Positions 18,001 to 21,000 are shown, numbered from the stretch's first letter. The stretch: DNA of 64,000 nt from Candidatus Bathyarchaeota archaeon (GCA_963720565.1 CAVRFW010000005.1:256001-320000), one strand, 5' to 3'. Numbers: made by a program.

Positions 18001-21000
18001 AGACAAGTTCTCGCTCATTCTAAGCACAAATCAAATGGTAAACTAACACGGTTGTGAAGGAGTTGGTACTTCTCCTTGTATCTCAGCTAAAGCAGATCCA
18101 AATGTTTAAACCCAAGAATCATATCTGACAGAATAAAACGCTTCTGAGCTAAAAGCTTGTTTAAATAGGAAAGGTTTTTAGTTAAGATGTGATATGAAAC
18201 TGTGCAAAAGTGAAAAGGGTATTTAGAGGTTAACATTATGTCCGTGTTTGCAGCACCTGGTGCATACGACCGCGCTATAACTGTTTTCTCGCCAGATGGG
18301 CGGCTTTTTCAAGTTGAATACGCCATGGAATTAGTGAATCGTGGCGCAACAATTCTGGGGATCCAATCTACAGAAGGAGTAGTTCTGGCTTCAGAAGAAA
18401 ATGTTGAAGTCCTTGAAGAGGCCGGATATTCCTGGAAAATCTTCAGGATTGACGAGCATGTAGGAGCCGCAATAGTGGGATTAAGTTCCGACGCAAGAAT
18501 ACTCACTGATCAAGCTCGAATATACGCTCAAAGTAACAAGCTAACTTACGACGAACCCATGGATGTCGAAGTTGTGACCAAACGAATTTGCGACATACAG
18601 CAGATGTACACTCAGCATGCAGGCGTCCGACCGTTCGGAGTAAGCATAATCTTCGGAGGCGTAGACAAAACAGGTCCGCGGGTTTTTGGAACACACCCTA
18701 GCGGAACATACAGAGGATACAAAGCCACAGCCCTAGGCGCCGGAAGAGAAACAGTTTTGGCATTATTGAAAGAGGAATATCGCGAAGAAATGGGCCTAGA
18801 AGATAGTACAAAACTCGCAGTGAAATGTCTAGTAAAAGCCTTGGACGCCAGACAACTGCCGCCCAGAATAAAAGTAGCCCTAATCCCAGCTGCAACGAAA
18901 AAACTAGAAATGTTACCCGACAAAACGGTTGAAGGTTATATCAAAGAGCTGGGTTCGAGCAAGTGAAAACCGGATGAGTGAGAAGTATACCGTTGCACGC
19001 TTTACCAAAGACAACGAACATTTTGAAATTCTAGTAAAACCACAGAAAGCATTAGATTACCGCAACGGAAAAATCTCTGGGATAACCGAGGTTTTGGCAG
19101 CAGAGACTATTTTTGTCGATGCAAACAAAGGCACGAAAGTCTCAGAAGAGCAAATGCACAAAGCCTTTCAAACAACGGACACTCTTAAAATCGCAGACAC
19201 CATACTCAAAAAGGGAACACTTCAGCTCACGACAGAGCAAAGGCGAAAGATGATAGAAGACAAGAGAAAACAAATAATCGACTTCATTTCACGACAGGCT
19301 GTTGACCCTAAGACAAATCTGCCGCATCCACCCTTACGTATTGAAAACGCGATGGAACAGATCCGTTATCCAATAGATCCCTACAAACCCGTAGAGGAAC
19401 AAGCCAGAGAGATAGTGAAACTCTTACGACCCATTTTGCCCTTGAAAATAGAACAGATTTCCGTGGGCGTCCGCATCCCTGTGGAGTACGCGTCAAGGGC
19501 TTACGGTGCAGTGAAGCCTTTTGGCGCCATAAAACGCGAAGAGTGGCGTGCAGACGGTTCATGGTACGGCATATTAGAAATGCCGGTTGGATCATACGCT
19601 TCGTTTCTTAACAAGCTTGGAGACGTAACAAAAGGAACCGGAGAGGCTAAAATAGTAACATAAAAACTTAAATGGAGGTTAAATGAAAGTTATGCCAACA
19701 TTTTTCGAAAAAAAGCAGCTTGTAACGCCTGGAGAATTATTAGCCGAAGGCGATTACGTGGCTGGTGAAAACACCTACTTAGAAGAGAAGAAGGTCTACG
19801 CTGCAAGAGTAGGTCTTGCAGACGTTGACAACAAAAAAGTGAATGTCGTCGCTTTAAGAGCGTTCTACATACCGAAAATGGGTGATATTGTAATAGGCAC
19901 AATCACGGAAGTCGGGTTCAACGGTTGGTCAGTGGACATTAAGGCTCCATACACGGCACTTCTGAGGGCTTCAGATGTTCTGAGTAGACCATTCAAACCA
20001 CAGAATGACGAGCTGTCGCAGGTCCTTAACGCTGGGGATTTGATTGTTGCCAAAATCGCGTCTTATGACCGAGCCCATGACCCTCAGCTCACGGTCGGTG
20101 AACCAGGTTTGGGAAAAATAACACGCGGACAGATAATGAGAGTCACACCCACCAAGATTCCCCGAGTGATCGGCAGGAAAGGCTCCATGATTTCGATGAT
20201 AAAACAAGAAACAAGCTGCCAAATAATCTTGGGACTCAACGGGGTCATTTTGGTCACTGGAAAAACTCCAGAGGATGAAGAACTCGCCATGACGGCGATT
20301 CGAAAGATAGAAGAAGAATCCCACACGAGCGGACTAACAGACCGCATTACACAATTGCTGAAGGAAGAAAAAACAAAACGGGAGGAAAACAAGGTTGAAT
20401 GAAAAACCTGAAAAACTGATAGATAAAAAAGGCATTAGACTAGATGGTAGAAAAGCAGATGAATTAAGACCTGTAAAACTTGAAGTAGGCGTCCTAGCAA
20501 ACGCTGACGGTTCAGCCTACATTGAACATGGAAAGAACAAGATCCTTGCCGGAGTATTCGGTCCCAGAGAGATGCATCCTAAACATTTGTCGCTTCCAGA
20601 TCGCATGGTGATACGCTGTCGCTACCACATGGCACCATTCTCTGTGCAAGAGCGAAAATCACCAGCACCATCACGACGAGAGGTTGAACTCTCAAAAGTA
20701 ATAAGGGAATCATTGGAGCCCTCAGTGTTCTTAGAATTGTACCCGCGAACGGGTATAGACGTGTTCATAGAGGTCTTGCAGGCTGACGGAGGAACAAGGT
20801 GTGCAAGCATAACTGCTGCATCACTCGCCATAGCAGATGCAGGAATCCCAATGCGCGACTTAGTGGTCGCATGCGCAGCCGGAAAAATAGATGACACTGT
20901 AGTCTTGGATCTATTCGACGCCGAAGACAAACTTGGCGCAGCCGACGTTCCCTTGGCCATAATGCCCAACTTGAACGCAGTGACACTTTTGCAGATGGAT

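Follow-up and report, generated by a model that had tools for sequence, protein, structure and literature searches.

The tyrosine of the HbYX motif (a hydrophobic residue, tyrosine, and any residue at the C-terminus) is the textbook key to proteasome gating, and it is the basis of motif-driven partner searches and of activator design. Among 81 genomes, every archaeon without the proteasomal ATPase PAN was found to have a Cdc48 with an HbYX end (Forouzan 2012, PMC3493965). PAN loss as such is of a known kind, having been described in Thermoplasmata, Thermoproteales, Thaumarchaeota, and Korarchaeota (Forouzan 2012, PMC3493965); in Bathyarchaeia it is class-wide in the genomes searched.

The Cdc48 (VAT)-20S system of Thermoplasma acidophilum (PMC3493965) resembles that of Bathyarchaeia in three respects: PAN is absent, the alpha pocket is conserved, and the Cdc48 keeps its pore loops and has a C-terminal tail that is free. 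The VAT tail reads L-Y-L, whereas that of the main Bathyarchaeia Cdc48 group, termed clade A below, ends in [VI]-[AT]. Cpa, a Cdc48-like protein of actinobacteria (PMC6017811), is likewise a Cdc48-family ATPase that interacts with 20S without HbYX, as is proposed here for clade A. It differs in that its last residues are dispensable for binding and that it coexists with Mpa/ARC; in Bathyarchaeia, by contrast, conservation of the tail is strong and a PAN-type ATPase is lacking.

Two further systems offer partial parallels. PbaB of Pyrococcus activates 20S in an ATP-independent way that depends on its HbYX motif, and PbaA, which carries the motif too, fails to bind mature 20S (PMC3605417). Among the PF09754 (PAC2-family) proteins that Bathyarchaeia encode, several likewise have tails of the HbYX or Hb-F-X type, and one such protein lies in the window (the whole stretch of 64,000 nucleotides that was analyzed). 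However, all three PAC2 proteins that were scanned fall below the TIGR00161 and TIGR00162 cut-offs, and in some Bathyarchaeia lineages the PAC2 tail is one residue longer or the HbYX member is lost. The 11S activators PA26/PA28 set a precedent for the mode of binding, in that a tyrosine-free C-terminus docks in the alpha pocket (PMC10349882, PMC6017811). They differ in being ATP-independent, in their unrelated fold, and in having a separate activation loop, of which no counterpart was identified here.

Alpha subunit gene and its genome

The gene for the 20S proteasome alpha subunit lies at 18238..18966 on the plus strand and encodes 242 aa that match PRK03996 over the cut-off. Its 80 nearest named relatives mostly carry Bathyarchaeia or Bathyarchaeota labels. 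ORF calls place the gene in an exosome/proteasome cluster of the usual archaeal type (17566..22591). From their translations, we take its neighbors to be prefoldin beta (on the minus strand) and, downstream, SBDS-like, Rrp4, Rrp41, Rrp42, L37ae, and Pcc1-like genes. The cluster (17566..22591) contains neither an AAA ATPase gene nor one for an activator. This single alpha and two betas are the 20S subunits of the genome (termed G000; completeness 88.8%), the same counts that had been reported in the survey's finding.

The genome was also said to have no PAN, and no frame of ~400 aa with a coiled coil, an OB domain, and a single AAA domain was recovered from it. Its AAA matches include two Cdc48 proteins and one Vps4/CdvC-like protein, with no AMA-like candidate among them; the other AAA frames are presumably RFC, ClpB, Cdc6, and MoxR-like. 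A PAN-sized AAA frame of 388 aa on contig C9 was considered as a divergent PAN and rejected, because it is CdvC/Vps4-like (520 bits versus 179 for PAN). One ClpB-like gene is apparently split into two overlapping frames (G000:C10:53211-55635), and a ClpB-like frame of 777 aa is present on contig C7. The genome also has one JAB-domain frame (PF14464; L745, G000:C12:68546-68821).

PAN is missing from the class

Class-wide absence of PAN, previously claimed from fewer genomes, gains much firmer support from two profiles run on 401 Bathyarchaeia genomes, with clean positive controls. When four candidates were scored per genome with TIGR01242, none of the 401 genomes exceeded the 500-bit cut-off; the top score was 343 bits, and each of the 150 matches listed starts at model position 77 or beyond. 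With up to 12 candidates scored, the cut-off was passed in 0 of 20 Bathyarchaeia versus 32 of 131 other Thermoproteota, the latter at 563-621 bits. A second profile, which covers the coiled-coil/OB N-domain and is free of AAA sequence, was built from 20 of these Thermoproteota PANs. It found PAN in all five held-out PAN genomes (1e-41 to 1e-47) and gave no true match in the 401 Bathyarchaeia genomes; a single weak match was rejected as alanyl-tRNA synthetase.

Several other families of Thermoproteota that were searched also yielded no PAN. Judged by their named neighbors, these include Caldarchaeales, Brockarchaeota-type genomes, and a B24-type lineage. A quick alpha tree joins all three to Bathyarchaeia, although support for the grouping is modest (SH-aLRT 82). 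A single ancestral loss for these lineages is plausible, and the loss of PAN, probably one event, would then predate the divergence of Bathyarchaeia, Nitrososphaeria, Caldarchaeales, and Brockarchaeota-type lineages.

Cdc48 tails are conserved and lack HbYX

The two Cdc48 genes of G000 lie beyond the window, one on the plus strand (L001, G000:C3:59322-61493) and one on the minus strand (G000:C13:132524-134692). Each product has two Walker A motifs, and the C3 protein matches TIGR01243 with 1087 bits (cut-off 802.65). When the C-termini were read again, one ended PGTPVA and the other PAPFVV, both without HbYX as had been stated, and no hydrophobic-Tyr-X end was found among the AAA and Walker-A proteins of G000 that were inspected.

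Cdc48 ends were collected from 84 genomes, namely G000, 66 of 68 genomes searched, and 17 from which one copy was fetched; a few copies in the 68-genome set are cut by contig ends. In a tree of 152 full-length sequences, both G000 proteins fall into clade A (96 rows, SH-aLRT 99). Partial sequences were assigned by likeness rather than by the tree, five to clade A and six to clade B. Clade A also holds Nitrosopumilaceae-like Cdc48s that end F-Y-G, and therefore the same orthologue bears HbYX elsewhere. The tail counts exclude two Vps4 proteins, five AAA frames of 900 aa, and a single copy with a frameshift, as well as seven paralogues of clade-A type in which the tail is lost and the protein ends in a charged helix.

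The remaining clade-A tails end in [VIL][ATSVG] in 76 of 79 cases (76 of 86 if the seven paralogues are included), whereas this ending is found in 8 of 31 clade-B Cdc48s and in 85 of 1234 ORFs of G000, a background that includes spurious frames. Position -2 is Val in 40 and Ile in 34 of the 79 tails, position -1 is Ala in 55 and Thr in 18, and Tyr or Phe never occurs at -2. A W/F-Y helix precedes the C-terminus by 19-24 residues in 78 of 79 sequences. The clade-A consensus is [P/T/L/A]-[V/I]-[A/T]-COOH, carried on a flexible tail of ~20 residues, and 33 of 36 families have a Cdc48 tail of the [VIL][ATSVG] type. These tails make use of every codon for Val and Ala and of each of the three stop codons; such free synonymous change indicates that the constraint acts on the protein. 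Clade-A tails are altered, not decayed. Given the kinship of the genomes, the tail counts measure conservation and represent few independent events.

The pore-1 loop (KWVGE) and the pore-2 loop (PRRG...DSGV) are present in both G000 Cdc48s and in most clade-A sequences compared. Both loops are present in clade B as well, so they do not distinguish clade A. A complete lack of HbYX in Bathyarchaeia was not confirmed: a Cdc48 with HbYX occurs in 4 of 84 genomes, each time as a clade-B paralogue (in the other 80, none was found among the copies read), and HbYX is also carried by PAC2 proteins discussed below. Two other potential bearers of a tail signal were tried and rejected. A small partner protein sharing the tail adjoins neither Cdc48 gene of G000, and Vps4 has the motif in none of nine tails read from the class, nor in G000.

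Some AAA proteins depart from the common architecture. Frames of 907-935 aa with degenerate Cdc48-like matches occur in five class genomes and lack HbYX (L115-L119). In two Cdc48 genes with frames of 1110-1118 aa (L139, L140), an insertion of ~350 residues near the first Walker A motif splits the model match; the insertion is probably an intein.

An exception to the published rule

The same method was applied to Cdc48 tails beyond the class, and 50 tails were obtained from 31 of 38 PAN-less genomes. HbYX was recovered in seven of these tails, from five genomes in three families (P-Y-Y-R and F-Y-G; L-Y-L; F-Y-V), which shows that the method detects the motif where it is present. No HbYX was found in the copies read from the B24-type lineage and two related families (TPVT, TPIT), from Caldarchaeales (AYIG, MMIG), or from Brockarchaeota-type genomes (PTLV, FFLV). 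The ending Y-I-G is shared by one PAC2 clade and by Cdc48s of Caldarchaeales and Aenigmarchaeota.

The combination of PAN absence with a main Cdc48 that lacks HbYX had been called unexpected, and it does run counter to the rule of PMC3493965. The rule of Forouzan 2012 fails in Bathyarchaeia, Caldarchaeales, and Brockarchaeota-type genomes. In Bathyarchaeia, a real, class-wide loss of PAN coincides with a conserved Cdc48 tail that is not HbYX, which points to a putative variant of the docking signal. A literature search that covered few subscription papers returned no report of PAN loss or of Cdc48 tails in Bathyarchaeia. The available portions of PMC11475706, PMC4453063, PMC4192671, PMC7226402, and PMC13022661 hold nothing on either subject, and the string 'Bathy' is absent from the main text of PMC11475706. 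The supplements of PMC3493965 give tails per species, and unusual endings in some of the lineages discussed here may already be recorded there.

Bathyarchaeia are abundant in sediments and rank among the most abundant groups of archaea, and their natural, conserved tail without tyrosine contradicts the rule for PAN-less archaea. Searches with strict HbYX overlook regulators, and the Bathyarchaeia tails allow a cheap peptide test of which contacts truly open the gate.

The alpha gate and activator pocket are retained

The mapping of alpha positions onto the Thermoplasma subunit is partly assumed. The Thermoplasma numbering was inferred from the YDR, K66, and G80-L81 anchors (PMC10349882, PMC12352868). 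In bound HbYX tails, the carboxylate contacts K66 and the backbone contacts G80/V82; the Tyr hydroxyl contacts G19, lying between K33 and L81, and the hydrophobic residue contacts V24/L21 (PMC10349882, PMC12352868, PMC10349142). The alpha subunit of G000 keeps Y10-D11-R12, P19, G21, L23, V26, E27, Y28, K67, G81, and L82, which in Thermoplasma numbering are Y8-D9-R10, P17, G19, L21, V24, E25, Y26, K66, G80, and L81. Its changes L32, E54, W66, and I79 are typical of the lineage.

In Thermoplasma numbering, K66, G80, and L81 are invariant in 31 of 31 class alphas, and Y8, D9, R10, P17, G19, V24, E25, and Y26 are kept in all 30 that are readable there. All 80 near-relative alphas agree on gate and pocket, with one E25D. 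Position 33 (Arg or Lys) and position 21 (Leu or Ile) are looser. The class alphas retain the canonical archaeal gate and activator pocket.

The pocket rim shows lineage differences. At position 52, all 31 class alphas have Glu, whereas all 13 alphas from PAN-bearing genomes have Lys or Arg. At position 65, the class has Trp (21) or Gln (8) and the PAN-bearing set mainly Glu (10 of 13); at position 30, the class has Thr (21), Leu (5), or Pro (3) and the PAN-bearing set mainly Ala (11 of 13). Because Glu52 and Thr30 are common to Nitrososphaerales alphas as well, co-adaptation of the rim is possible, but no more. A single compensating change in the pocket (A30 to T, L, or P; K52 to E; E65 to W or Q) was rejected, since each fits phylogeny at least as well as it fits tail type. 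Charge complementarity was rejected as well: in G000 the match of the basic tail of Cdc48 to an alpha loop of acidic character is striking, but it does not discriminate over 60 alphas.

Position 81 varies outside the class. Tyr81 occurs naturally in 18 of 18 Nitrososphaerales loci (L709-L741) and in both aligned alphas of family f38 (L333, L336), Phe81 is found in 17 of 17 Brockarchaeota-type loci, and several alphas of the PAN-bearing genomes L142-L161 have Met or Phe. The laboratory substitution L81Y part-opens the Thermoplasma gate (PMC10349882), and by analogy the Tyr81 and Phe81 proteasomes may be naturally half-open. Within the class, three f22/f19 genomes encode a second alpha (L563, L565, L566) in which YDR reads YDA, YDG, or YDE; mixed rings with altered gating are possible there.

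Proposed docking of the tyrosine-free tail in the usual pocket

The survey's finding had concluded that this proteasome must be opened in another way. Its premises stand, in that PAN is absent and the main Cdc48 lacks HbYX, but the conclusion goes too far: the pocket is intact, the Cdc48 tail is conserved, and many Bathyarchaeia have a PAC2 protein that ends in HbYX or Hb-F-X. We lean, with moderate confidence, toward a reading in which the same alpha pocket is used and the tyrosine-free Cdc48 tail is the key. Clade-A Cdc48 would cap the 20S proteasome in an ATP-dependent manner. Its tail would dock between adjacent alphas in the usual pocket, where a salt bridge from the carboxylate to K66 and backbone bonds would hold it, with Val or Ile replacing Tyr. 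Six-fold valency and the D2 pore-2 loop might offset the missing Tyr-G19 contact, as the literature suggests. PAC2 proteins with HbYX or W-F-I tails, where present, could contribute ATP-independent opening or assist assembly.

The conservation of the clade-A tail, in its length and in its last two residues, is as expected for a docking tail. Two kinds of apparent relaxation elsewhere are also counted in favor of a tyrosine-free key. Some PAC2 tails are lengthened to Y-[VI]-small, and a further PAC2 clade ends YIS, which suggests convergence. In addition, half of the Thermoproteota PAN tails have no Tyr or Phe at -2: among 20 such tails, three are strict HbYX, ten have Tyr or Phe at -2, and ten have another residue. 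Examples of the last group (from L142-L161) end TTI, THI, IIF, TVI, and VMQ. Published work provides precedents: binding of Cpa to 20S needs no HbYX, contact between Cdc48 and 20S has a second determinant in the pore-2 loop of D2 (PMC6017811), the gate opens on occupancy of the Hb pocket alone (PMC12352868), and valency relaxes the demand on sequence (PMC8907193).

Other results count against this reading. A Methanosarcina Cdc48 without HbYX gave no stimulation of 20S, and a tail-less Thermoplasma Cdc48 was inactive in the same assay (PMC3493965). In a multivalent chimera, Ala at -2 lowered activation of human 20S by 80% (PMC8907193). Moreover, none of the alpha substitutions cleanly follows the change in the tail, L81 being unchanged in the class sample, and position -3 of clade A is frequently Pro or Thr, which are poor fillers of a hydrophobic pocket.

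PAC2 proteins and a possible opening without Cdc48

The presence of five PAC2 proteins in G000 was confirmed, but the number is no signal of compensation, because such counts are ordinary elsewhere: 18 Bathyarchaeia have 1-6 and three PAN-bearing genomes have 2-3. An expansion of PAC2 genes that makes up for PAN was rejected because the counts overlap those of other Thermoproteota. The tails carry a signal; gene number carries none. In G000, the five proteins end TYIS, SYVT, RWFI, KEGL, and LNHN.

The R-W-F-I protein is encoded in the window at 42679..43431 on the minus strand (250 aa; PbaA/PbaB-like). It matches PF09754 with 129 bits, over the Pfam cut-off, and its nearest NCBIfam model is TIGR00162 at 160.6 bits, below the cut-off of 200. 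Its tail is the only HbYX-like one (Hb-Phe-X) among the proteasome-linked families of G000. W-F-I fits the broad pattern [LVIMGAPFYW][FY]x of PMC3493965 and does not fit strict HbYX. Orthologues end RWFI, RWFV, or AWFV, with one RWVV and one RWYI. The protein is a candidate ATP-independent activator or assembly factor. A plus-strand ORF of 140 aa at 42260-42682, without an NCBIfam match, converges on this gene with a 4-base overlap; by eye, we presume that its product is Sm-like. Elsewhere, a PAC2 gene directly adjoins the PAN gene in two PAN-bearing genomes (L144, L157).

A tree of 81 PAC2 proteins contains a clade that has canonical HbYX tails in many Bathyarchaeia. Among 221 class genomes, 98 were found to encode an orthologue of this type (60 of the 125 that are of high quality), as were 6 of 30 genomes of the family to which G000 belongs; it was found in none of 49 f22 genomes, in none of six f19 genomes, and not in G000. 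Of 30 such loci, 25 tails could be read, and 19 are canonical and six lengthened to Y-[VI]-small; in families f1-f3, the extended ends are LYVS, LYIT, VYVS, YYVA, or FYIR.

These tails make it conceivable that Cdc48 is no cap at all. Its tail would then bind an adaptor or cofactor while Cdc48 unfolds substrates upstream, and the gate would be opened only by HbYX or W-F-I PAC2 proteins in the manner of PbaB. The frequency of the HbYX-type orthologue and its largely canonical tails argue for such a division of labor, and in those f1 genomes that lack the orthologue a protein ending RWFI or RWYI remains. Eukaryotic p97 tails bind cofactors, and the conserved clade-A tail could likewise serve another partner. 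PbaB itself is the precedent for HbYX-dependent, ATP-independent opening (PMC3605417). On the other hand, PbaA, with its HbYX and no binding to mature 20S, indicates that the motif alone is no proof of activation (PMC3605417). The extreme case is that of five f22/f19 genomes with two PAC2 genes each, neither with an HbYX or Hb-F-X tail; these genomes retain the clade-A Cdc48 tail. We regard opening by PAC2 proteins only as unlikely.

The preferred reading, with the tyrosine-free Cdc48 tail as the key, can be extended more tentatively. A second 20S docking code of the form x-[Val/Ile]-small-COOH might exist across Bathyarchaeia and their PAN-less relatives. It might have been reached separately by Cdc48 and by two PAC2 clades, with co-adaptation of the alpha rim, and the f22/f19 proteasome might work without any HbYX partner. 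This proposal is possible, and we hold it with reserve.

Less likely alternatives: pore-loop contact, other activators, and overlooked PAN

If Cdc48 bound 20S by the pore-2 loop only, or if the gate were leaky, no tail in the pocket would be required. The last five residues of Cpa are unimportant for binding (PMC6017811), single alpha changes such as L81Y can part-open the gate (PMC10349882), and the second alphas of f22/f19 genomes have an altered YDR region. This explanation nevertheless leaves the conserved last two residues and stop position of Cdc48 unaccounted for, and the main alpha retains all gate residues as well as L81 and V24, which makes it distinctly improbable.

An activator of an unrecognized family is less probable still. 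The incompleteness of G000 would leave room for one, and 21 of its frames of at least 100 aa end Hb-Y-X, many of them probably spurious. Yet none of these frames is an AAA or PAC2 protein, no candidate adjoins the alpha or Cdc48 genes, and the known families already supply conserved tails.

That PAN is present but overlooked, through incomplete genomes or divergence, is largely refuted and very hard to credit: the 401 genomes are a sample of a larger group, mostly metagenome assemblies with four candidates scored in each, but 219 of them reach a completeness of 90% or more with contamination of 5% or less (some of these assemblies consist of just 1-3 contigs), and the AAA-free profile gave nothing real. 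In 68 genomes, all candidates were scored by means of the Cdc48 model; additional frames with a single AAA domain score like Vps4 there, the nine whose ends were read all having Vps4-like endings.

Annotation of PAN is subject to a different error. Scored as a whole protein, the C3 Cdc48 (L001) exceeds the PAN cut-offs of both TIGR01242 (619.8 versus 500) and PRK03992 (643.5 versus 500), because its two AAA domains are summed. A Cdc48 that scores as PAN in this way can mask the loss of PAN.
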